Shown one piece after another: positions 5,215 through 62,432 of a stretch of 64,000 nt of DNA; the stretch's first letter is position 1; each line of letters begins with the position of its first letter. The notes under the pieces were generated by a model. That model was given only the letters and a program-made list of their open reading frames with translations, had not been told where the DNA came from and searched no databases. Location: NCBI GenBank assembly GCA_964458665.1, contig CAYWOO010000042.1, positions 2,987-66,986 on the forward strand. The letters are read 5' to 3'. The position numbers and the translations under genes were made by a program. The stretch comes from an uncultured Dehalococcoidia bacterium. Its GTDB lineage: Bacteria; Chloroflexota; Dehalococcoidia; DSTF01; JACRBR01.

Positions 5215-6141
5215 TTACTTCGGGAAGCCCTGCATGATGGTGATAATCGCCGGCCCCAGGATGACGATGAAGAGCGTCGGGAAGATAAATATCACCAGCG
5301 GGAAGAGCATCTTCACCGGCGCCTTGTAGGCAGCCTGCTCGGCGCGCTGGCGGCGCTTCACGCGCAACTGGTCCGCTTGCACGCGAAGCACCGTGCCGAC
5401 GGAAGATCCCATCGCTTCCGCCTGAATGACGGCGTTCGTGAACTGGATGAGGTCCGGCACGCCAGTGCGCTCGCCGACTTCCTTCAGCGCATCGCGGCGC
5501 GACTTGCCGAGCGCGATATCGCGCAGCGCACGAGACAGTTCGTCGGAGAACGGGCCCTTCACCTTCTCGGCGACACGCGCCAGGGCCGCATCCAGCCCGA
5601 GGCCTGCTTCCACACAGGTGGTGATCAGGTCGAACGCGTCGGGCAGGCTCTTGATGATCGCGTTCTGGCGCGCCTTCGAGCGCGATCCGACCAGGTAAAA
5701 CGGCAGATAGAAGCCGATGAACGCGACACCGCCGGCCAGGGCGATCGTCATGCCGCTGACTGACGCGCCCGACACGACCACGATCGTGATCGCCAGCGCG
5801 GCGGAGGCAACCGTAGAGACGAGCACCATGGTGAGAAAGCCCTGCATGTTCATGGGCTCGCCCGCGTAGATGAGCTTCTGCTGCACGCCGCTGAGCAGCG
5901 AACGTGGAAGCAGACTGCCGAATCCTTCGGCGGCTCCATGCACGAACGGCGAAATGACCCGCTGGCCGAACGTCGGGTTCACAAGCGTCAGCTCGACTTC
6001 GCTGCCTCCGCGCTTGAAGCCTTCGAGGCGCTGGCGCGCGGCAGTAGCCGCCGACGACTGCCCGGACGCAGTGAGCCCCAGCAGCGCGAAGATAATTGTG
6101 CAGAAGACGGAGAACGCGATGAGCATCGCCATCGTGTCCAT
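5215..6141 (-). CDS. tadC: Type II secretion system F-family protein, TadC-like
   Basis: T2SSF domain with N- and C-terminal TM segments. It is the last gene of the cpaF-tadB-tadC series and lies 2 nt from tadB. Confidence 0.85.
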   Translation of the reverse strand: MDTMAMLIAFSVFCTIIFALLGLTASGQSSAATAARQRLEGFKRGGSEVELTLVNPTFGQRVISPFVHGAAEGFGSLLPRSLLSGVQQKLIYAGEPMNMQGFLTMVLVSTVASAALAITIVVVSGASVSGMTIALAGGVAFIGFYLPFYLVGSRSKARQNAIIKSLPDAFDLITTCVEAGLGLDAALARVAEKVKGPFSDELSRALRDIALGKSRRDALKEVGERTGVPDLIQFTNAVIQAEAMGSSVGTVLRVQADQLRVKRRQRAEQAAYKAPVKMLFPLVIFIFPTLFIVILGPAIITIMQGFPK

Positions 6142-6143
6142 GA

Positions 6144-7112
6144 TTACACCTCGATGTCCAGGATGCGCTGGATGATCATTACGCCGACCGTCTCCATAAT
6201 GACGGCGGCGACGAGCATGCCCTTGCCCGTGAGCGTGGTGAACAGCGGGTTGATATAGCCGGGGCTCATCACCTGGAACAGCAGGCCGACGCCGAGGGGA
6301 ATCATGCCAAGAACGATACCCGTGAGCTTCTGCTGCGCCGTCAGCGTCGCGATCTCTCCGCGGATGCGGATGCGCTCGCGCATGGTCTCGGCCACCGTGT
6401 CGAGAATCTCGCCGAGATTACCGCCGACCGTGCGCTGCACCAGGATGGCAGTCACGACGATATCCAGGTCGTAGCTGTCCGACCGCTCACTGAGCGCGAG
6501 CAGCGCCACTTCGGCGCTCGACCCGATGTTCATCTCGTGGATGGTGCGGGCCATTTCCGTCGAGATCGGGTGCGACATCTGCTCCGAGGCGGCGCTCATC
6601 GCTTGCAGCAGGCCGAAGCCGGCTTTCAGCGAGTTCGACATCATCGTTAGCGTCTCGGGGAGCTGCGAGTTGAGCTTCGCCACACGAGACGAGCGCCGAT
6701 GGTTCCGGTAGAACTTCGGCAGGTTGTAACCGATGACCGCGGCAGCGCCAGCAATGAGGAAGGCGAGCCAGCCGGACACGAGGAAGACGGGCACGATGGC
6801 GAATACGGCCGCCATGGCAAAGCGCATGACGATGTATTCGCCGGGACGGAGCGACATGTCGGCGCGCTCCAGCTCGTGCGCCAGTTTTTCGCCCATGACG
6901 CCCGGCGCCAGGCCGGAGAACATACTCTTGCCAGTTTTCGACCCGCGCAGTGCCTGCGGGCCGGCTTCCACAACGGAGGTACCCGCCATCAGGCCTTCGA
7001 GACGGCCGCGGACGTTCGAAGACGTGACGGTGTTGCCGTAAAACGCGTAGAGCGTCACGACGATCGTGGCCATCACGGAAAGCGCGGCGACTGCTGCCAA
7101 GTAGTCGAACAT
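6144..7112 (-). CDS. tadB: Type II secretion system F-family protein, TadB-like
   Basis: T2SSF membrane protein immediately after cpaF (1-nt gap). Confidence 0.85.
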   Translation of the reverse strand: MFDYLAAVAALSVMATIVVTLYAFYGNTVTSSNVRGRLEGLMAGTSVVEAGPQALRGSKTGKSMFSGLAPGVMGEKLAHELERADMSLRPGEYIVMRFAMAAVFAIVPVFLVSGWLAFLIAGAAAVIGYNLPKFYRNHRRSSRVAKLNSQLPETLTMMSNSLKAGFGLLQAMSAASEQMSHPISTEMARTIHEMNIGSSAEVALLALSERSDSYDLDIVVTAILVQRTVGGNLGEILDTVAETMRERIRIRGEIATLTAQQKLTGIVLGMIPLGVGLLFQVMSPGYINPLFTTLTGKGMLVAAVIMETVGVMIIQRILDIEV

Positions 7113-7113
7113 A

Positions 7114-8484
7114 TCAGGATCCTGCCGGTGTAAACATGTCTGACGGCAGGTGAATGCCGGCGACTTCGAATTTCTCGGCGAAACGCGGCCGGATCCCCGT
7201 CGTGCGCAGCTCGCCCAGGACGCGTCCGTCCGTGTCGATGCCCGTCTGCTCGAAACGGAACAGATCTTGCATGGTCACGACCTGGCCCTCCATGCCCGAG
7301 ACCTCCGCCACGCTTACGACCTTGCGCGTGCCGTCCGGGAAGCGGGCGATCTGGATCACCATATGGATGGCGGATTGCATCTGCTCGCGAATGGCCTTCA
7401 CAGGCAGCTCGAAGCCGGCCATCATCACCATGTTCTCGATGCGGGCGAGGGCGTCGCGCGGCGTGTTGGCGTGGACCGTGCCCAGCGAGCCTTCGTGGCC
7501 CGTGTTCATCGCCTGCAGCATGTCGAACGCTTCCGGACCGCGGACCTCGCCGACGATGATCCGGTCGGGCCGCATACGCAGGGAGTTGCGCACGAGGTCG
7601 CGCTGCGTCACCTCGCCCTTGCCCTCCAGCGACGGTGGCCGCGCCTCCAACGTGACGATGTGACCCTGCTGGAGCTGAAGCTCCGTCGGGTCTTCGATCG
7701 TGACGATGCGCTCGGTGTCCGGAATGAACGACGACAGCGCATTGAGCATCGTCGTCTTACCGGAGCCCGTACCGCCGGAGATGAGGATGTTCAGCTTGGC
7801 CTGCACGCAGGCCCGGAAGAACTCGGCGAGCTCGTTCGTCAGTGCGCCGGTGGCGACCAGGTCGCTAAAGGTCATCTTGTCGGCGCGGAACTTCCGGATC
7901 GTGATCGTCGGGCTCTTGGGGGCGACGGGAGGAATGATCACGTTGACACGCGAGCCGTCCGCGAGACGCGCGTCCACCATCGGCGACGATTCGTCGACGC
8001 GGCGGCCGAGCGGCGCGACGATGCGCTCCACGATCCGCATGATGTGCTGGTCGTCGCGGAAGCGCACCGAACTCAAGTAGAGCCGGCCTTCCTTTTCGTA
8101 GAAGACGGTGTCCGGGTGATTCACCATGATTTCTGAAATGCTGCCGTCACGAAGCAGCGGCTCCAGCGGTCCGAGGCCAAGAACTTCGTCAGCGACGGCG
8201 GAGACCAACTCGTCGCGCGTCGTGCCGACGATGCCCGGCATCTCCTGGGCGATCAGCGTGCGCGCTGCCTGCTCGACGGCTTCGCGCGCCTTGTCCTTGC
8301 CCAGACCTTCAAGCTTGTTCGGGTCCAACTCCTCGATGAGGCGCTGGTGAAGCGTGAACTTCAACTCGTTGAGGGCGACGACGTTCTGCGACAGCTGGCC
8401 TGGCCGCGAGGCGGCATTGTTCGAACCGCCACCTGTGACGCCGCCCGCCTGGATCTTTCGCGCCTGCCACTGGAACTGAGTCAT
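7114..8484 (-). CDS. cpaF: CpaF/TadA family pilus assembly ATPase
   Basis: Walker [10 protein letters not shown], Walker B and Asp/His boxes ([36 protein letters not shown]). Confidence 0.92.
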
Positions 8485-8508
8485 GCTACGTTCTCCTACG
8501 TTCGCTTA

Positions 8509-9702
8509 TCAGGCGGAGCGGCCGAGGACCCTGTCGAGGAACCCCCGCTTCTCTTGCCTGGTGCCAGTGAGCGCGTGCGCCAGTTCGATGATGGCGCGCG
8601 AGACGCGGGCATACGGCTTCGCCACGACGATCGGCTGGCCGAGTTGCGTGCTGCTCGAGACGCTGAGATCGTGTGGGATGCGCCAGAAGACGTCGTACTC
8701 CAGCACGCGCGAGACATCCTCCTCGCGAAGGCTGTTCGCCGCCGTCGAGTGGTTGATCATCAACTTGACCTTGTCTTCGGAAACACCGGCGGCGCGCAGC
8801 ATCTCCAGCGCCAACGCGGTGTCCTTAATACTGGCGATGTCCATGCTCGTCACCAGGAGGATCAGATTGGCCAGCTCCAGCGTCGCCGCGATCAACTCGT
8901 TGAACGTGCCCGGCGTGTCAATGACAACGTAGTCGTGCGTCTGCGCCAGCAGCTCAACGATTCGCTCGATGTGCTGCGGCGTCATGTTGCGCCATTCGGT
9001 AGGGTGCAGCGGCGCCGGCAGAATCGACACGCCGCTGTGGTGCTTAACCAGGAAGTCGCGGATCTTGTCGCGGTCGATGTCGTCGATCTTGCGCGCCACG
9101 TCGGCGATGCTCATCTCGACCGCGACGTCCATCATGATCGCGACATCGCCAAATCGCGTGTCCATATCCAGCAGGCAGACGTTCGCGCCGGTCATTTTGG
9201 CCAGGGTCACCGCCAGGTTGGTGGAGATGGTGGTCTTACCGATGCCGCCCTTGGCGCCGAATACGGTGATCACGGTGCCACGAGCGGCGGCCTCGCTGGT
9301 CAGGCCGTCGGCGCGCAGGCGCTTCTTCTCTTCCTGCTCCAGCACTCCGTACACGGCGCGGCTGAGGTCTTCCGGCTTCAGCGGCTTGACCAGATAGTCG
9401 CGGGCCCCGGCCACCATGGCGCGGCGGACGGACTGCGCATCGGCCAGCGACGAATACACAATCGTCGGGATGCCCGGCGCGACGTCGGCGAGCGATTCGA
9501 TCGTCTGGAGCGCAAGGGCGACGGGCTCTTCGACGGACACCAGGAAGACGTCCGACGGACGCTCCTTCGCGACCGTCACCGCTTCGACGCCGTATCCGCC
9601 TTCGCCCACGACCGTGAAGTGGGCAATCTGAACGGCGCGCTTCGTCTCGGCCCGACTTCCGAGGTCCGGGTCTACGGTGACGACTTCTGGATTTCTCGCC
9701 AT
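8509..9702 (-). CDS. CpaE/TadZ-like protein: atypical receiver domain plus ParA/MinD-type ATPase
   Basis: The N-terminal REC-like fold lacks the canonical acceptor (DVFLVSVEE). Next comes the deviant Walker A GAKGGIGKTT. Its position between cpaB and cpaF fits the call. Confidence 0.8.
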   Translation of the reverse strand: MARNPEVVTVDPDLGSRAETKRAVQIAHFTVVGEGGYGVEAVTVAKERPSDVFLVSVEEPVALALQTIESLADVAPGIPTIVYSSLADAQSVRRAMVAGARDYLVKPLKPEDLSRAVYGVLEQEEKKRLRADGLTSEAAARGTVITVFGAKGGIGKTTISTNLAVTLAKMTGANVCLLDMDTRFGDVAIMMDVAVEMSIADVARKIDDIDRDKIRDFLVKHHSGVSILPAPLHPTEWRNMTPQHIERIVELLAQTHDYVVIDTPGTFNELIAATLELANLILLVTSMDIASIKDTALALEMLRAAGVSEDKVKLMINHSTAANSLREEDVSRVLEYDVFWRIPHDLSVSSSTQLGQPIVVAKPYARVSRAIIELAHALTGTRQEKRGFLDRVLGRSA

Positions 9703-9755
9703 CGACTACGTCTCCTACGTTCGCCTGAACGCCCGATCCTCGGTCCCGTTCTCTC

Positions 9756-10646
9756 TTAGCGCTTGTATCCGTCCGGCTTCAGCGCATCCGGAAGCGCGCT
9801 GATGGCGTCGATGGGAAGCAGTTCCGGCTGTGTCACGATGACGTAGCCGCTATCCGGCGTGTCCTGGTCGCCGACACCACGGGCGGTGAGGCGCAGCTTG
9901 CCACCCGCCTCGGCGAGGAACAGGATCTGCGCCTGCTCCGGCGTCAGGAGCATCGTGACGGTCGAAGCATCCGGGACGGCCACGGCGTCGCTCGCAGCGA
10001 CGGGGTTGGTCGATCCAGGCGCCAGAACCGGCGCGCCGGCTGTCACGGTCGGGTTTGTGTTGGTAGTCGTGACAGGCCCGGACGGCACGATCGTCTGCGC
10101 GACCGCCACGACCTGGATGTTCCTGAGCAGTGTCTTCGACACCACCACGCGGTCCGAGCAGCAGGCCCAAACGATGTCCACCCAGTCGCCCGGGAGGATC
10201 AGGCCGCCCGCATTACCCACCTGCGACGCCGAGATCGACATAGCACGCTTGCCGGTGGGGACGACGTACGAGAGCGCGGCGTTGGCGATTGGTCGCGATG
10301 TGTCGATGACCGCGCTGCCGACGAGCTGCTGGTTCACCTCCACCGGGAATTTGGTGACCTTGCCCACGGCCGTGCTGATGTCGCCATACGCGCCTACGGC
10401 GACGCTGTTCAGCGGCACGCTCTTCACTTCCAGCATCGCGGCCGTGATGGTCGTCCGCTCCTTGATCGGGATCTTCGCGACGACGACCTGCTGGTCGCCC
10501 GCGGAGACCGTCGTCGAGGTCGACGTGTCGTTGGCCGAAATCTTCGCGTAGACCAGCGCCGCGCTGAGTCCAGCGAGAAGAATCGCCACCAACAGGAAGC
10601 GCCGGTTCGTCCGGCCCTGTGCACCACTCGCAGCTCTCTGTGCCAT
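9756..10646 (-). CDS. cpaB: Flp pilus assembly protein CpaB/RcpC-like
   Basis: N-terminal TM helix, SAF-like region (IPIKERTTITAAMLEV) and a CpaB-type C-terminal domain, in the expected Tad gene order. Confidence 0.85.
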   Translation of the reverse strand: MAQRAASGAQGRTNRRFLLVAILLAGLSAALVYAKISANDTSTSTTVSAGDQQVVVAKIPIKERTTITAAMLEVKSVPLNSVAVGAYGDISTAVGKVTKFPVEVNQQLVGSAVIDTSRPIANAALSYVVPTGKRAMSISASQVGNAGGLILPGDWVDIVWACCSDRVVVSKTLLRNIQVVAVAQTIVPSGPVTTTNTNPTVTAGAPVLAPGSTNPVAASDAVAVPDASTVTMLLTPEQAQILFLAEAGGKLRLTARGVGDQDTPDSGYVIVTQPELLPIDAISALPDALKPDGYKR

Positions 10647-10808
10647 GGTTCATCCCCTATGTCGGAATCAGGCCCGGAGGCCAAGACGCTGTATAGGTAT
10701 CGGCGCGACGCCGCCCTGCTTTACGACCCTGTGTAGATTCCGGGCGCCTGCTCGCCCACTTTGCGCCAGTCATCGGGTCCGCCGAACGGCCGGAGGCGCA
10801 TCTGTACG

Positions 10809-11384
10809 TCAGGCGGCGGGATCCAGCAGCTTCATTTGCTTTCGCAGCGAATTGAGCGCACGGTGCTGAATGACGCGGATCGCCGCGACACTCTTACCGA
10901 TAATCTCGGCCACTTCCTTGTAATCCAAATCCTCAATGAACCGGAGGATGATCACCTGACGCTGCTCCTCGCGGAGCTTCAGAATCGCCTCGCGTACGAG
11001 CTCTTCCTCGGCCGTCTGCTGGTACGACCACTCCGGATCCCGGCGCTCTTTCGTGTCCACAATGCCATCGTGCAGCTCCGACGAATCGCGTTTGGAGCGC
11101 AGGTAGCTGACGCCGAGGTTGTGGGCGATGCGGAGCAGCCAAGAAACGAACGGAGCGCCGCGCACCTGGTAGCGCTCGATGGCCTCCCACGCCCGCAGGA
11201 ACGCCTGCGCGGTGAGGTCCTCAGCTTCGGCGGCGTTGCCCACCATGTAGTAGATATGACGGTAGACGCGTACGACGTGGCGGTCGTACAGTTCGCCGAA
11301 CGCCTCCTGGTCGCGCCGGATCGCCCGCAGCACAAGCGGCGTATCGTCATTCGCGCGCGGTACCGCTGTGTTCGCACTGACCAT
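10809..11384 (-). CDS. ECF-type sigma-70 family RNA polymerase sigma factor
   Basis: Region 2 (EAFGELYDRH...VYRHIYYMVGNAAEAEDLTAQAFLRAW) and region 4 HTH (YKEVAEIIGKSVAAIRVIQHRAL). Confidence 0.85.
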   Translation of the reverse strand: MVSANTAVPRANDDTPLVLRAIRRDQEAFGELYDRHVVRVYRHIYYMVGNAAEAEDLTAQAFLRAWEAIERYQVRGAPFVSWLLRIAHNLGVSYLRSKRDSSELHDGIVDTKERRDPEWSYQQTAEEELVREAILKLREEQRQVIILRFIEDLDYKEVAEIIGKSVAAIRVIQHRALNSLRKQMKLLDPAA

Positions 11385-11556
11385 CTAGCGCTCCGCTCCA
11401 GGCCGGCGGGCCGTACTCAGTTGGGCCTTCGGGGCGCCCGGGGAACCGCCGCGCGTTCCCCTACGGGTGCTCCCGCATTTCCCACATGAAGATCGGCATC
11501 CCGATGCGACCGCTTTAGGGTTAGACGCCTGAGGGGCGGAACTCTTACAGGAAGGG

Positions 11557-56470: not shown

Positions 56471-57109
56471 CTAGCGGGCGGCTGCCTGGCGGCGTTCCGA
56501 TGCGGCGGCTGTCTCCAACGGAGCAAGCAGCGCATCCACCAGCTCAGCGGGCGTCATCGCCTTGCCACCGGGCGAGCCGATGGCGATCTGCACGGCGTAC
56601 CCATCGTGCGCGGCGAGTGCGACGGCGGCCGCGTCCTCGGCGGACTGGAGTTGCATGACACCAGCGGCGGCGGCAGTGGCAAATATATCGGCGAGTGTCT
56701 TGCGCCAGCCGGCGTATGCCTGCGTCAGCCGTTTGCTGACTTCTTGATTGCGCACAGCCTGCGCCCAGAACTCCAACAGCACGCCCGGCCATTGCGGCGC
56801 AGCGGCATACGACATGAAGTTCGCCAACGCTTCGTGCAGGGCGTCGCGCGGGCTGGCATCCGCCTCCGCCCCTTGGGCGAGAACGAGGCTGCGGCCCTCA
56901 GTCCATACGCGAAGCAGCTCGAGGAGGATGTCGTCCTTCGTCGAGAAGTGGAAGTAGTAGGCGCCCTTCGAGTAGCCTGCGGCCTGGGAGATATCGTCGA
57001 CAGTGGCGTGCTCATACCCGCTCGTCGAGAAGAGTTGCAGCGCTGCATCAATGAGCTTCGCGCGCGTGAGCTTCCGCTGCTCGAATCGATCCAGACTTGT
57101 TCTCGGCAT
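56471..57109 (-). CDS. TetR/AcrR family transcriptional regulator
   Basis: HTH block ATVDDISQAAGYSKGAYYFHF. ATG 57109 follows GAGGG. Confidence 0.85.
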   Translation of the reverse strand: MPRTSLDRFEQRKLTRAKLIDAALQLFSTSGYEHATVDDISQAAGYSKGAYYFHFSTKDDILLELLRVWTEGRSLVLAQGAEADASPRDALHEALANFMSYAAAPQWPGVLLEFWAQAVRNQEVSKRLTQAYAGWRKTLADIFATAAAAGVMQLQSAEDAAAVALAAHDGYAVQIAIGSPGGKAMTPAELVDALLAPLETAAASERRQAAAR

Positions 57110-57339
57110 AACCCTCACTGCGCCTAGTATCGGCAGGAACGCCCGTTTCCGACGCCTTAGTATGCATGAGCATGCCATCTTTGCCAATACCGGTTGACAA
57201 GGGCTACCTCGCCTTTACCGAAAGTTCACGGGAAAAAAAGCGCAAAAGCCTGTAACAAAACGCCGCCAGCCTCGTTATGGGTCTGTGAGCGCGCCGGCGG
57301 ATCCGGCAGACGAGCGCAGCCAGGAGGGCACCCAGGCAC

Positions 57340-57436
57340 GTTCAGAGGCACCGAACAGGCAAACTCGCCGCGAGGCGAGGACGCAACGCCACGGATCCGC
57401 AACGAATCGCGGACAGCCGGGCTACCGAAGACCTGG
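57340..57436 (+). promoter_or_regulatory. Candidate c-di-GMP-I (GEMM-I) riboswitch aptamer
   Basis: ACAGGCAAAC, then a 6-bp stem CTCGCC/GGCGAG capped by the GNRA loop GCGA, then GGACGCAACGCC, then a second hairpin (CGG-AT-CCGC...GCGG-ACAG-CCG), then GGGCUACCGA. The order and spacing parallel the Vibrio Vc2 aptamer as I recall it. Confidence 0.78.
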
Positions 57437-57471
57437 AGCCCCGCCGGCTTCGAACGTTTTCGACGCGTGCA

Positions 57472-57516
57472 ATGCCGCCTGTCGTCCTCCTCTGGACAGG
57501 CGGCATTTTTGTTGTT
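57472..57516 (+). terminator. Intrinsic terminator (riboswitch expression platform) 18 nt before the sigma-factor start
   Basis: ATGCCGCCTGTC-11 nt-GACAGGCGGCAT followed by TTTTTGTTGTT. Confidence 0.88.
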
Positions 57517-57533
57517 CGAATTGGGGGTGGCCG

Positions 57534-58259
57534 ATGCGCTCACAGACACGCCAGGAGATGATCACCAGGCACATGCCGCTTGTCGCCTTCGTCGTCAGCC
57601 GCATGTCGACGGACAACCAGAAGACGTTGGGGCTGGACCGCGAGGACGCTCTCGCATACGGCATCGAAGGCCTTATCCAGTCGGTAGACGCATTCGACGA
57701 GACGCGCGGCACGAGCTTCGCTAGCTTCGCCGTGCGGCGCATTCGCGGATCGATTCTGGACGCAATCCGGAAGATGGACCCGCTGCCCCGGTCGCTGCGC
57801 AAGAGCACCCGCGAGGTCGAGCAGATCTCGCAGGAGCTGTCAGCTGCGCTGGGACGCTGGCCGACGCCGAAAGAGATCGCATTCCGCATGGGCATCGGGT
57901 TGGAACAGCTGCACGGCATCCAGCGCCACGCGGGCTCCAAGTTCATTTCGCTGGAGCATGCGCTGCAGGATCGCGGCGGCGAGAGCGCGCCGTCGTTCGA
58001 TCCGGTTGACGACGACGAGTCCGGCGATCCGGCCAAGGCCGCTGATCACAATGCATCACTAATGCTCTTGGACGAGGCATTGCATCGGCTGAGCGCTCGG
58101 GATCGGGCGATCCTCCGTCTGCGGTATTCAGATTCGAAGCCGTTCCACGAGATCGGCCAGATGATGGACCTGTCAGAATCGCGCGTCTGCCAGCTTCACA
58201 AGCGCATCCTCTCGGTGCTGAAGCGCCAGATCAACGCCCAGCTGGAGGAGGCCGCCTAG
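57534..58259 (+). CDS. FliA/WhiG-family (group 3) sigma-70 factor
   Basis: Region 2 (DALAYGIEGLIQSVDAFDETRGTSFASFAVRRIRGSILDAIRK), region 3, and region 4 HTH (FHEIGQMMDLSESRVCQLHKRIL). The upstream part of ORF 57285.. overlaps the riboswitch and terminator and is rejected. Confidence 0.85.
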   Translation: MRSQTRQEMITRHMPLVAFVVSRMSTDNQKTLGLDREDALAYGIEGLIQSVDAFDETRGTSFASFAVRRIRGSILDAIRKMDPLPRSLRKSTREVEQISQELSAALGRWPTPKEIAFRMGIGLEQLHGIQRHAGSKFISLEHALQDRGGESAPSFDPVDDDESGDPAKAADHNASLMLLDEALHRLSARDRAILRLRYSDSKPFHEIGQMMDLSESRVCQLHKRILSVLKRQINAQLEEAA

Positions 58260-58337
58260 CTTCGCTACGGCCGAGGCCGAATACGGCCGATATTCTCCTA
58301 GGCCTCCGGGTCGAGGCCACTATTGCGGGCGGAGACC

Positions 58338-59861
58338 ATGCTCAACGAGCCGATGGACACGCTGCCGCCACAGCCGGACGCCCAAGAGGAGGAGCCGGTA
58401 GCAGCGGCGTCCTCCGACGGCAACGTTATCACCTTCCCCATCGCGACCGAGCCGGACCAGGGCGAGCGGCTTCCCGGGCTCGCACTTGCCTACGTTTTCA
58501 CGATCTTCCTGGGCGGGCTGATCTCGGTCGCCCTATTCGCGCCTCAACTCGATACCGCCGATCTGGGCGGATTCGTGGTGCTCGCACTGCTCGCGATAGC
58601 CTTCGGGCGCACACGTGTACCCATCTACGGCGACACCAGCGTTTCGATCGGCATGGTGGGGGATTTCGCGATCGCGTTCCTGTACGGCCCTGCGGGCGCT
58701 GTGATTGTGAGCCCATTCGCGGCGATCGCCACGGATCTCGGCGTGGGCGCGTGGTACAAGCGACTGTTCAACGTAGGCCTGATCGTCCTCAGCAACGTCG
58801 TCGTTGCGTTCATGCTTCGATCACTGGTGCATATCGTCGGACCTGGCCTGCCGGTCAACGGTTGGTTGATCCCGATCGCGCTCGCCGGCGTTGTGGTGTA
58901 CTACCTCCTGAACATCAGCCTCGTGACCGTAGCAGTCGGCCTCTCCACGAAGACATCGCTCCTGGAAGTCTGGCGTGAGAAGTTTGAGTGGCTGCTTCCT
59001 CACTACATCGTCTTTGGACTCCTCGGTCTGGCACTGGCGCTTGGCTACCAGGGCATCGGCTACTACGGCATCCTTGCGTTCGTGGCGCCGCCTCTCATGA
59101 TGCGCTTCTCCGTAAAGCAGTACGTCGACAAGACTGCCCAAAACGTCGACGAGCTGAAAAAGCGCAACCGGGACCTGCAACAGGCGAACCGCGACGTGCT
59201 CGGCATGGCCGACCAGTTGCGTGAAACCTACGACGGCACACTGGAGGCGCTCGTGTCGGCGCTGGACGCGCGTGACCGTGAGACGAAGGGTCACTCGATC
59301 CGCGTGGCGAAGTACATGATGGAGATCGCCTTCTACATGGAGATCCAGCCGGGCACCGAGGAGTGGGTCGACATGCAGCGCGGCGGGCTGCTGCACGACA
59401 TCGGCAAGATCGGTGTGTCAGATTCGATTCTGCACAAGCCTGGGCCGCTGACCGACGACGAGTGGGTGGACATGAAACGCCACCCGAAGATCGGCCACGA
59501 CATGATCAAGGACATCGGCTTCTTGTCGGGTGCGGCCGTCCTCATCATGGCGCACCACGAGCGGTTTGACGGTAAGGGCTATCCGCGCGGACTGGCGACC
59601 GACGATATCCCGATCGGCTCACGGATATTCGTCCTGGCAGACACCTTCGACGCGATGACGTCGGATCGGCCGTACCGGGCGGCGCTGTCCGTGGACGCGT
59701 CGCGCGAGGAGATTATCAGCTGCAGCGGCACGCAGTTCGACCCGCAGTGCGTGCAGGCGTTCCTTCTGGCGTTCGACAAGATCGTGGAGATCCGATTCGC
59801 GGAGCACGAAGAGGAATCCGAGCACCACGCGGCAGCGGCGCCGCGCCAGGCTGCCGCCTAA
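58338..59861 (+). CDS. HD-GYP domain c-di-GMP phosphodiesterase with an N-terminal multi-pass membrane domain
   Basis: HSIRVA...LLHDIGKIGV...HHERFDGKGYPRGL, preceded by about 6 predicted TM helices. Confidence 0.88.
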   Translation: MLNEPMDTLPPQPDAQEEEPVAAASSDGNVITFPIATEPDQGERLPGLALAYVFTIFLGGLISVALFAPQLDTADLGGFVVLALLAIAFGRTRVPIYGDTSVSIGMVGDFAIAFLYGPAGAVIVSPFAAIATDLGVGAWYKRLFNVGLIVLSNVVVAFMLRSLVHIVGPGLPVNGWLIPIALAGVVVYYLLNISLVTVAVGLSTKTSLLEVWREKFEWLLPHYIVFGLLGLALALGYQGIGYYGILAFVAPPLMMRFSVKQYVDKTAQNVDELKKRNRDLQQANRDVLGMADQLRETYDGTLEALVSALDARDRETKGHSIRVAKYMMEIAFYMEIQPGTEEWVDMQRGGLLHDIGKIGVSDSILHKPGPLTDDEWVDMKRHPKIGHDMIKDIGFLSGAAVLIMAHHERFDGKGYPRGLATDDIPIGSRIFVLADTFDAMTSDRPYRAALSVDASREEIISCSGTQFDPQCVQAFLLAFDKIVEIRFAEHEEESEHHAAAAPRQAAA

Positions 59862-60900: not shown

Positions 60901-61725
60901 TTACGCCGTGAGCCACATCCGTCGCCGGCGCTCGCGCTCCTGTTTCGCCTCGCTCAGGCTGCTCATCGCCGCCTCCAGGACGGCCTCGGCGCGCGTCATC
61001 TCCGGCAACGACACCGCGCTACCAGATGCGACGCCGGCCCACAGCGACACCGTGCGTCCGCCAACATCCGCGGCTGCGGACTCGCGCGCCAGCCGGTCCT
61101 CCAGGCGCTCGATGAACGCCGCCACACCCTCCGCACCGGTATCGAGGAGGAGGATGCCAAACTCGTCGTCGCCAAGGCGCGCGACGATGTCGTTGTAGCG
61201 GCGCGTGCCATCGACCGCCTTTGCCACGTGACGGAGGACCTCGTCCCCAGCCCGCACGCCGTACTCCTTGTTGACGGCGGTGAGGTTGTTGACGTCGATA
61301 AGCACCACGGACAGGTGACGGCCCATGCGGCGCGAGCGAGCGAACTCATCGCCAAGACGGCGAGAGAAGTGATTGAAGGTTGGAAGGTCCGTCAGGAGGT
61401 CGTGCTCGGCGGCGTCCAACTCCTCCTCCCGCTCACCCGGTGTACGATCGTCCACGCGGGCGGTCCAAAGGAAAGTCGCGCCCACCAGCAGGCCGGTCAT
61501 CGTCATGGCCGTCAAAAACGGCAGATGGGCGACGGGGCCAAACTCGTCGACGAGGGCGCCAACAATCGCGGCCCCCCACATCAGCGTGAGCAGCCGGAGC
61601 ATCGCTGGCACCCAAAGGATGGGCCGCCGTGCGTCCTGCGGCCGGCCGGCGGCCTCGAAGGGCGCATCCATCCTCTGTTTCGGCTCCGAGACGACGCGAA
61701 TGGAACGTGGACTGCGCATGTTCAC
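60901..61725 (-). CDS. Membrane-anchored GGDEF-domain protein with a GDDEF active-site motif and an RxxD I-site
   Basis: N-terminal TM helices. GGDEF-domain blocks DLLTDLPTFNHF, VVLIDVNNLTAVNKEYG, RYNDIVARLGDDEFGILL. Confidence 0.85.
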   Translation of the reverse strand: MNMRSPRSIRVVSEPKQRMDAPFEAAGRPQDARRPILWVPAMLRLLTLMWGAAIVGALVDEFGPVAHLPFLTAMTMTGLLVGATFLWTARVDDRTPGEREEELDAAEHDLLTDLPTFNHFSRRLGDEFARSRRMGRHLSVVLIDVNNLTAVNKEYGVRAGDEVLRHVAKAVDGTRRYNDIVARLGDDEFGILLLDTGAEGVAAFIERLEDRLARESAAADVGGRTVSLWAGVASGSAVSLPEMTRAEAVLEAAMSSLSEAKQERERRRRMWLTA

Positions 61726-61886
61726 GCGGTCACCCCCTTCCCCAGCACTAGTATCGGCCGTACCAGGCAGACCCGAACGGGTTGTGCACCAGTCCGCCGC
61801 ATACCCGCACGTCGCGTTTGTAAGCGCATAGGCGTTGGGCTAAGATGAACGGGCGAGTCTGGCTGCCAGCGGTAAGGAGGAGGGTG

Positions 61887-62432
61887 ATGCAAATCGATTG
61901 GGATAAGACGATCGATGACATCTTCGTCGACAAGCTCTCCTGTCTGAGGTGCGGCTCACTGAGTGCAACGCTCGTGGCCGGCTACAGCCGCGCTCCTGGC
62001 TCGGCCGACTACGCACCGCGCACGCACAACTGCAAGAACAAGGAAGAGTGCGACGCGCGCCGCCTCGTCGTCGTCTGCGAGAACTGCGCGCGCGACCTGC
62101 GCCTGCGTGCGAATCCGGTCGACCGGGAAGCGATGATGACGTTGCTCATCAACGACTGCCGTAAGGACCTGGAAGACTGCCTCGACTATCTGGCCGACTA
62201 CTGGCAAGAAGATCTCGATATCGACCCGAGCGATACGAGTTCGCGGCTGGAGGACATCGAGCCTGGCATCTTTGCCGAGGAAGATGCGTGGCGAAAGAAG
62301 CTCGAGGAAGAGTACCTGAGCTACCACCGCTGGTTCCGCGATCACGACATGCACATTCCCAACCCCGGCTGGCGCAGCGAGTACGTCGAAGAGATCATCG
62401 AGCTCGGCTACGCGACACTGCTGGGTGACTAG
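61887..62432 (+). CDS. Hypothetical acidic protein with an N-terminal Cys4 zinc-ribbon-like motif
   Basis: ATG 61887 follows AGGAGGAGGG. CxxC (CLRCGS) ... CxxC (CENCARDL). The promoter-like TTGTAA-17 nt-TAAGAT lies upstream. The 5' end has lower GC (28 G+C in the first 60 nt). Confidence 0.55.
   Translation: MQIDWDKTIDDIFVDKLSCLRCGSLSATLVAGYSRAPGSADYAPRTHNCKNKEECDARRLVVVCENCARDLRLRANPVDREAMMTLLINDCRKDLEDCLDYLADYWQEDLDIDPSDTSSRLEDIEPGIFAEEDAWRKKLEEEYLSYHRWFRDHDMHIPNPGWRSEYVEEIIELGYATLLGD

Follow-up and report, generated by a model that had tools for sequence, protein, structure and literature searches.

Riboswitches usually control enzymes or transporters, and hardly anything is known about regulation in the uncultured Chloroflexota of soil and groundwater. 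Here we describe a riboswitch of the c-di-GMP-I (GEMM-I) family, which senses cyclic di-GMP (c-di-GMP), in the leader of a gene for a sigma factor of the FliA/WhiG (sigma-28) group. It lies in a 64-kilobase (kb) stretch of contig CAYWOO010000042.1 from an uncultured Dehalococcoidia bacterium (the window; positions are counted from its first letter), and the whole analysis is computational. We regard Cd1 of Clostridioides difficile as the nearest functional precedent, a c-di-GMP-I riboswitch that reportedly precedes the flgB flagellar operon containing sigD. Cd1 reportedly joins an aptamer to a terminator in an OFF switch, in which high c-di-GMP cuts transcription short and so lowers a sigma-28-family factor and its regulon, which is also what we propose for the element described here. 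In C. difficile, however, sigD lies far down a long flagellar operon, whereas here the sigma gene is the first gene and is paired with a gene for a predicted phosphodiesterase of the HD-GYP type; the window holds no flagellar genes, and the candidate regulon is a Tad pilus.

A second parallel works through protein. In Actinomycetota, including Streptomyces and Rubrobacter, the anti-sigma factor RsiG forms with WhiG a c-di-GMP-dependent switch (PMC7005675, PMC8325347), and in Rubrobacter the output of WhiG comprises type IV pili and genes for diguanylate cyclases and phosphodiesterases, read from TAAA / GCCGATAA promoters (PMC7005675, PMC8325347). The messenger and the sigma family are the same in both cases, high c-di-GMP silences the sigma factor there as it is predicted to do here, and a candidate promoter of the Rubrobacter kind (TAAA / GCCGATAA) precedes the Tad pilus operon of the window. 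The mechanisms are unrelated, as a protein anti-sigma sequesters the sigma protein in Actinomycetota, whereas here an RNA aptamer would act on transcription of the sigma gene; RsiG was not found here, although no search aimed at it was made. With RNA in place of protein as the sensor, the riboswitch can be viewed as a counterpart, acting on the same sigma family, of the RsiG-WhiG switch of Actinomycetota.

The RNA class is well known and its expression platform is conventional, and it is the regulatory wiring that is of interest. Genes for HD-GYP proteins are in the original GEMM gene list (PMC1950547). The first controlled gene here is a sigma factor gene, and the word 'sigma' is absent from that paper's main text, gene table included (PMC1950547). 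In the literature that we searched, no c-di-GMP riboswitch was reported directly 5' of a WhiG/FliA gene, nor in Chloroflexota with such a context. Gating an alternative sigma factor directly by a riboswitch would put a whole regulon under one RNA sensor, and the coupling of this factor to an HD-GYP protein predicts positive feedback and an all-or-none decision, possibly on Tad pili.

The c-di-GMP-I aptamer and its conservation

When the 64-kb window was compared with all of Rfam (cmscan), only two matches exceeded the gathering score, a tRNA and c-di-GMP-I (RF01051). The latter matches 57348-57429 on the plus strand over the full length of the model (1-87) with 57.2 bits (E 1.5e-8, gathering score 35), in agreement with the original prediction of a c-di-GMP-I aptamer, which had been made from the letters of the sequence without database searches. 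The region 57340-57520 folds with z = -4.4 relative to shuffles. We place the aptamer at 57348-57430 (+), on the strand of the sigma gene and 105 nucleotides (nt) 5' of its ATG, where two hairpins are closed by C57352-G57427 and G57353-C57426. The first hairpin (57359-57384, +) begins with GC paired to GC and continues with CUCGCC paired to GGCGAG, a perfect helix of 6 base pairs (bp) capped by a GCGA tetraloop (57364-57379); it has the 2 + 6 bp, the 3-nt internal loop and the GNRA tetraloop of the family, and is followed by the second hairpin (57387-57423, +). The core motifs read ACAGGCAAAC (57355-57364, +), GGACGCAACGCC (57379-57390, +) and CCGGGCUACCGA (57417-57428, +). These cores, the 57364-57379 helix with GCGA and a second hairpin at 57392-57419 had all been listed in the original prediction, and each is found where it had been placed.

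The element shares with Vc2-type c-di-GMP-I riboswitches (RF01051) the two-hairpin aptamer with a GNRA tetraloop, the GGCAAAC, GACGCAA and CYRCCGA cores, the G20/A47/C92 pocket, the location in a 5' untranslated region and the link to c-di-GMP turnover genes. Unlike typical members of the family, it belongs to an uncultured Chloroflexota host, its second hairpin in the window is short and lacks a tetraloop receptor, and the linker between the hairpins (57385-57387) is AAC. The third position of this linker is the first pair of the second hairpin in the Rfam model and is mismatched in the window; across 29 leaders (that of the window and 28 related ones) the linker reads AAA in 23, AAC in five and AAU in one. 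In Vc2 numbering, the ligand contacts G20, A47 and C92 correspond to G57358, A57385 and C57425. The equivalents of these three nucleotides, already singled out in the original prediction, are invariant in 29/29 leaders; the pocket is therefore of the canonical c-di-GMP type, and the aptamer probably binds c-di-GMP.

The conservation of the leader is consistent with this identity. We compared 20 genomes with sigma factors 78-95% identical to that of the window, all of them metagenome-assembled genomes labelled Chloroflexota or Dehalococcoidia, and found an aptamer of the c-di-GMP-I clan in 20/20, at the same distance 5' of the orthologous sigma ATG. Among 14 metagenome relatives (54-93% identical) whose sequence includes the upstream part, a covariance model of the lineage together with Rfam identified the aptamer in eight (sigma 57-93% identical), four of them closer and four distant (57-63%). 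All 28 related leaders pass RF01051 or RF03167 (c-di-GMP-I-GGC, gathering score 59 bits), or reach 84-97 bits with the lineage model. Aligned across the 29 leaders, both helices of the aptamer covary, with 93.5% of cells paired and 9 pairs changed on both sides (0/500 shuffles equal), although the alignment was fitted to a covariance model and is thus biased toward structure; once the pairing partners are slid, at most 43% of cells remain paired. Together, the Rfam match and these comparisons confirm the leader element as a genuine, conserved c-di-GMP-I riboswitch.

The surrounding gene order, dehydrogenase / TetR / leader / sigma / HD-GYP / TetR / GGDEF, is kept as well. With the lineage model and Rfam, the aptamer was not found in six metagenome loci that include upstream sequence and have sigma factors 54-62% identical (L027, L028 and L031-L034), nor at any generic FliA locus (30-40% identity). 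The aptamer-free distant orthologues indicate that the riboswitch was gained or lost within the clade. In L031-L033, which are among the loci without an aptamer, the HD-GYP gene is kept downstream.

Terminator, proposed switching helix and probable polarity

Downstream of the aptamer, at 57471-57516 (+), lies an intrinsic terminator whose GC-rich stem of 13 bp joins 57471-57483 to 57495-57507 around an 11-nt loop and is followed by a U-tract. The original prediction had described a perfect 12-bp stem and a U-tract ending 18 nt before the start codon. This stem, AUGCCGCCUGUC/GACAGGCGGCAU (57472-57483 and 57495-57506), is present and is extended to 13 bp by A57471-U57507, and the U-tract UUUUUGUUGUU runs as far as 57516, which leaves 18 nt to the ATG (57534). 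The hairpin has a folding energy of about -25 kcal/mol, its stem covaries (94% of cells paired, 4 pairs changed on both sides, score 0.178 vs 0.112 in shuffles, 0/500), and such a terminator occurs in 21 of 25 close leaders as well as in two distant ones (L025 and L026). These comparisons confirm the element as an intrinsic terminator; a simple terminator scan had missed it because the 11-nt loop exceeds the 8 nt that the scan accepts at most.

In the other four close leaders (L010, L012, L015 and L016), the terminator's place is taken by a hairpin that sequesters the Shine-Dalgarno sequence, its 3' arm being the GGGGGAG Shine-Dalgarno itself, and in L011 the terminator is nested within such a hairpin. 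The aptamer 5' strand of L015 and L016, CGACAGGG, matches CCCUGUCG of the anti-Shine-Dalgarno arm with full complementarity. The hairpin swap and the nested form suggest that the same aptamer moved between transcriptional and translational control inside one lineage. In the window, a Shine-Dalgarno-like GGGGGUG stands at 57523-57529 (+), 5-11 nt 5' of the ATG.

We propose that the leader of about 250 nt is a c-di-GMP-I transcription-termination OFF switch for a unit of sigma factor and HD-GYP phosphodiesterase, and we put the probability of this model as a whole at roughly 65%. At low c-di-GMP, nucleotides 57340-57348 and 57352-57360 (including G57358) would pair with 57477-57497, which would block the terminator and let RNA polymerase read through to the sigma gene. 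When c-di-GMP is high, the aptamer would be locked by its ligand, with its 5' strand held in the closing helix and the junction; the terminator of 13 bp would then form and transcription would end at about 57510-57516. In the four leaders with a Shine-Dalgarno hairpin in the terminator's place (L010, L012, L015 and L016), the same logic would apply to translation. The proposed antiterminator has two halves. The outer half joins segment 'a', GUUCAGAGG in the 5' flank of the aptamer (57340-57348, +), to segment 'c', CCUCUGGAC (57489-57497, +), which comprises the 3' half of the terminator loop and continues three bases into the 3' arm. The inner half joins the aptamer 5' strand CGAACAGGC (57352-57360, +) to GCCUGUCG (57477-57484), with A57355 bulged. 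The target at 57477-57497 (+) thus consists of GCCUGUCG, which is the 3' half of the terminator 5' arm, the loop, and segment 'c'. The last bases of segment 'a' can alternatively pair with ACCU just 3' of the aptamer, which lengthens its closing helix P1, and the outer helix and this P1 extension compete for GAGG (GAGGU/ACCUC in most orthologues, AGG/CCU in the window).

Several observations support this helix. The a:c pairing was found by RNAduplex at the same relative place in most leaders, and in an anchored alignment of 20 leaders 82% of its cells are paired and 5 of 9 pairs are changed on both sides. Its covariation score in these 20 leaders is 0.204, compared with 0.140 in shuffles (0/500 equal) and at most 0.139 with slid partners, and in L003 a compensatory loss of 2 nt on both strands leaves a 7-bp helix. 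We also folded transcripts truncated just before the rest of the terminator 3' arm, which represents the moment of the termination decision. The a:c helix was in 19 of the 20 minimum-energy folds, with at least 5 pairs in 18, and the inner helix (CGAACAGGC:GCCUGUCG) was seen beside it in most of them. Across 21 leaders, 85% of the inner-helix cells are paired, as against 34-60% with slid partners, and the RNAalifold consensus contains the core of this helix, CAGGC:GCCUG. The distant leader L025 has a platform of unrelated sequence, in which the terminator 5' arm and loop are likewise the partners of the aptamer 5' strand (-28.6 vs -17.8 +/- 2.9 kcal/mol in shuffles, 0/200), and a weaker form of this pairing is seen in L026 (-27.3 vs -21.7 +/- 3.0 kcal/mol, 10/200). 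The switching helix is thus probably formed by the 5' flank and 5' strand of the aptamer with 57477-57497 of the terminator, and not by the 3' strand of the helix P2.

This pairing also bears on polarity, which the original prediction had considered undecidable from sequence. The inner helix uses G57358 (G20) and the G57359-C57360 junction pair and is therefore incompatible with the ligand-bound aptamer. More generally, both candidate antiterminators, ours and the one proposed originally, need an unfolded aptamer, so c-di-GMP should cause termination (OFF). The polarity can, in other words, be inferred from complementarity and comparative data.

Some points weigh against this model. The equilibrium fold of the full leader, constrained or not, always contains the terminator, which means that any switching must be kinetic and thus beyond the reach of folding energies. 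The a:c helix shares only 3 bp with the terminator stem, is wholly inside the loop in L006 and lies 5' of the terminator in L011; given this position, it could serve another role, for example one that involves the Shine-Dalgarno sequence. Taken alone, the inner helix does not covary significantly, as 77/500 shuffles reach its score. In the aptamer, the AAC linker of the window departs from the near-universal AAA form, the linker being "virtually always AAA" in GEMM-I (PMC1950547).

An ON switch, in which abundant c-di-GMP would keep the terminator from forming and raise both the sigma factor and the phosphodiesterase, in a negative feedback on c-di-GMP, seems unlikely to us. Many GEMM-I elements were first read as ON switches in which the terminator 5' arm overlaps the 3' side of P2 (PMC1950547), whereas the terminator and aptamer do not overlap here and are 41 nt apart. 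Inducing a phosphodiesterase at high c-di-GMP would make a sensible homeostatic loop, and stacking of the long-range a:c helix on the ligand-closed aptamer is conceivable. However, the well-supported alternative partners of the terminator 5' arm are aptamer nucleotides that the bound state needs (G57358-C57360, or the P2 3' strand), and we found no sequence that would block the terminator while the aptamer stays folded. The loop of the spacer hairpin H, which we considered as an ON-type antiterminator, was rejected, as it can form only 5 bp with the terminator 3' arm.

An OFF switch could also operate through the antiterminator of the original prediction, in which GACAGCCGG (57412-57420) of the P2 3' strand, free in the unliganded state, would pair with CCGCCUGUC (57475-57483) of the terminator 5' arm. 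The likeness of GACAGCCGG to the terminator 3' arm, on which that proposal was based, holds, as 8 of 9 pairs form with the 5' arm. The helix is also compatible with the orthologues, in that 80% of its cells are paired across 21 leaders, changes from C-G to U.G and from A-U to G.U are tolerated, and it nests inside a:c, so that both could coexist. Its role as the antiterminator is nevertheless doubtful, and the helix with the aptamer 5' strand is better supported. The one unpaired position is a C.C mismatch in 21/21 leaders, one pair only is changed on both sides, and the terminator arm of L007 became CCCGCCC without a matching change in the aptamer. Among the 20 truncated folds, the helix appeared in one (L003), with 3 pairs only. 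This helix and the inner helix of the aptamer 5' strand are mutually exclusive, as both use 57477-57483, and the distant L025 and L026 use the aptamer 5' strand rather than the P2 3' strand.

Finally, it is very improbable that the aptamer reads a ligand other than c-di-GMP, be it 3'3'-cyclic GMP-AMP (cGAMP), as in GEMM-Ib, or the unknown ligand of the c-di-GMP-I-GGC variant. The architecture is shared with RF03167, which is the best model for 12 of the 20 genome orthologue leaders (60.6-71 bits) and for 2 of the 4 distant metagenome leaders, all of which pass its gathering score of 59. However, these higher scores come from the common short second hairpin and closing helix and not from the pocket, the G that defines RF03167 at the A47 position (GACGCGAA, compared with GACGCAAA in c-di-GMP-I) is replaced by A in all 29 leaders, and the window stays below the gathering score with 56.5 bits; we thus rejected this identity. 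GEMM-Ib riboswitches selective for cGAMP reportedly carry A at the G20 position, and the G found there in 29/29 leaders does not fit this identity.

The sigma factor, the HD-GYP protein and a candidate regulon

The gene behind the leader (57534-58259, +) encodes a protein of 241 amino acids (aa) with Pfam sigma-70 regions 2, 3 and 4. Its best NCBIfam model, far ahead of any other, is TIGR02479 (FliA_WhiG), whose 181.1 bits fall just short of the curated cut-off of 189.6. Its best matches among solved structures are 6PFV and 6PFJ (E 9e-36), which are S. venezuelae WhiG in RsiG-c-di-GMP complexes, followed by FliA 6PMI (7e-29). The FliA/WhiG-type assignment given in the original prediction is supported by these matches. 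The next gene, 63 nt 3' of the sigma gene (58323-59861, +), encodes a membrane-anchored HD-GYP protein with a MASE9-like N-terminus (PF13487 HD_5, 105.7 bits vs 27.2; MASE9, 29 bits). As had been anticipated, it is predicted to be a c-di-GMP phosphodiesterase, and the motifs HDIGK and HHERFDGKGYP are intact in its translation. The HD-GYP gene adjoins the sigma gene in 30 related loci, and a simple scan for loops of up to 8 nt found no terminator between the two; we take them to be co-transcribed. Exact-sequence look-ups of the sigma and HD-GYP proteins gave no match. Under the OFF switch, low c-di-GMP would lead to more sigma factor and more HD-GYP protein, and thereby to a self-reinforcing low-c-di-GMP state.

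The output of the sigma factor would probably be the Tad pilus operon. Pfam matches identify cpaB, cpaE/tadZ, cpaF, tadB and tadC of a Tad/Flp pilus operon at 5215-10646 on the minus strand. About 50 nt 5' of cpaB, and about 47 kb from the riboswitch, lies a candidate sigma-28/WhiG-type promoter, TAAA-N15-GCCGATAC (10697-10723, -), the sole match in the window compared with 0.01 expected. In five other Chloroflexota genomes, whose CpaB proteins are 56-82% identical, GTCGTAAAGC-N14-GCCGATACCTATACAGC is nearly invariant 5' of cpaB (one base differs in L105), whereas the spacer and flanks diverge. This conservation suggests that the promoter belongs to the regulon of the riboswitch-gated sigma factor. 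A second sigma-28-like site, TAAA-N16-GCCGATCT (11490-11517, -), stands 5' of a gene for a sigma factor of the extracytoplasmic-function (ECF) type (10809-11384), where L102-L106 all keep the block ACCCT(A/C)AAG(C/T)-N14-TGCCGAT, four of them with an extension to C(C/T)TCAT. This hints that the WhiG-like sigma factor also drives the ECF sigma gene, making a cascade, and we infer that the riboswitch-gated sigma factor is the reader of both the cpaB and the ECF promoters. Two other GCCGATA boxes, one at 58286 ahead of the HD-GYP gene and one at 61752 on the minus strand ahead of the GGDEF gene, were rejected as further sites, as neither has a TAAA at the right distance.

We tentatively extend the model to a riboswitch atop a sigma cascade, a possibility that we rate below even odds. 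Low c-di-GMP would yield the WhiG-like sigma factor, which would transcribe the Tad pilus operon and the neighbouring ECF sigma gene from TAAA / GCCGATA promoters, and the co-transcribed HD-GYP protein would lock this state and make it bistable. Such a system would be an independently evolved RNA counterpart of RsiG-WhiG that equals it in polarity and resembles it in its pilus output.

Other features of the leader and its neighbours

The 424-nt gap upstream of the sigma gene that was reported in the original prediction holds provided that the ATG at 57109 is the start of the divergent TetR gene, whose longest open reading frame (ORF) starts at a TTG at 57187. Within the leader region, TGTAAC-N16-CGTTA (57251-57277, +) is a candidate leader promoter and the only match in the window (0.01 expected). 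In 20 of 21 leaders, TGTAAY stands 99-113 nt ahead of the GGCAAAC core, with a CGTT block about 16 nt further on that is aligned in those 20. The AAC / CGT pattern resembles ECF sigma promoters, a reading based on the consensus sequences of Bacillus subtilis SigX/SigW. We also considered this motif as an autoregulatory promoter of the ECF sigma gene beside the tad operon, and dropped the idea, as the similar TGTAAG-N16-CGTCT in the window is not conserved in five other genomes. A sigma-70-like promoter for the divergent TetR gene is present at 57187-57159 on the minus strand.

Two hairpins lie between the putative transcription start and the aptamer (57289-57329, +), namely one at about 57289-57317, with a variable stem and the loop GGAUC, and the 3-bp hairpin GCC-AGGAG-GGC (57319-57329). 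Their stems covary and their loops, CGGAUC and AGGAG, keep GGA. In the 20-leader alignment, the stems vary (CACC/GGUG, CCCC/GGGG, GCC/GGC vs GGC/GCC) around these conserved GGA-containing loops. They look like binding sites of the CsrA type, or else like partners of the terminator loop, which is CCUCC-rich. Between the aptamer and terminator, the spacer hairpin H (GGAGCC-CCGCC-GGCUUC, 57435-57451, +) has all five stem pairs changed on both sides across 21 leaders, and its conserved C-rich loop, CCCCGCC, suggests a tertiary or alternative pairing.

The neighbours of the sigma and HD-GYP genes are a divergent TetR gene upstream, and a second TetR gene and a GGDEF gene downstream. The GGDEF-domain protein (60901-61725, minus strand) has RLGDDEF as its active-site motif, not GGDEF or GGEEF, which would fit either a degenerate cyclase or a receptor for c-di-GMP. 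Beside its gene, an ORF of 195 aa (61845-62432, +) has no Pfam match and is kept in 14 related loci at 78-96% identity.

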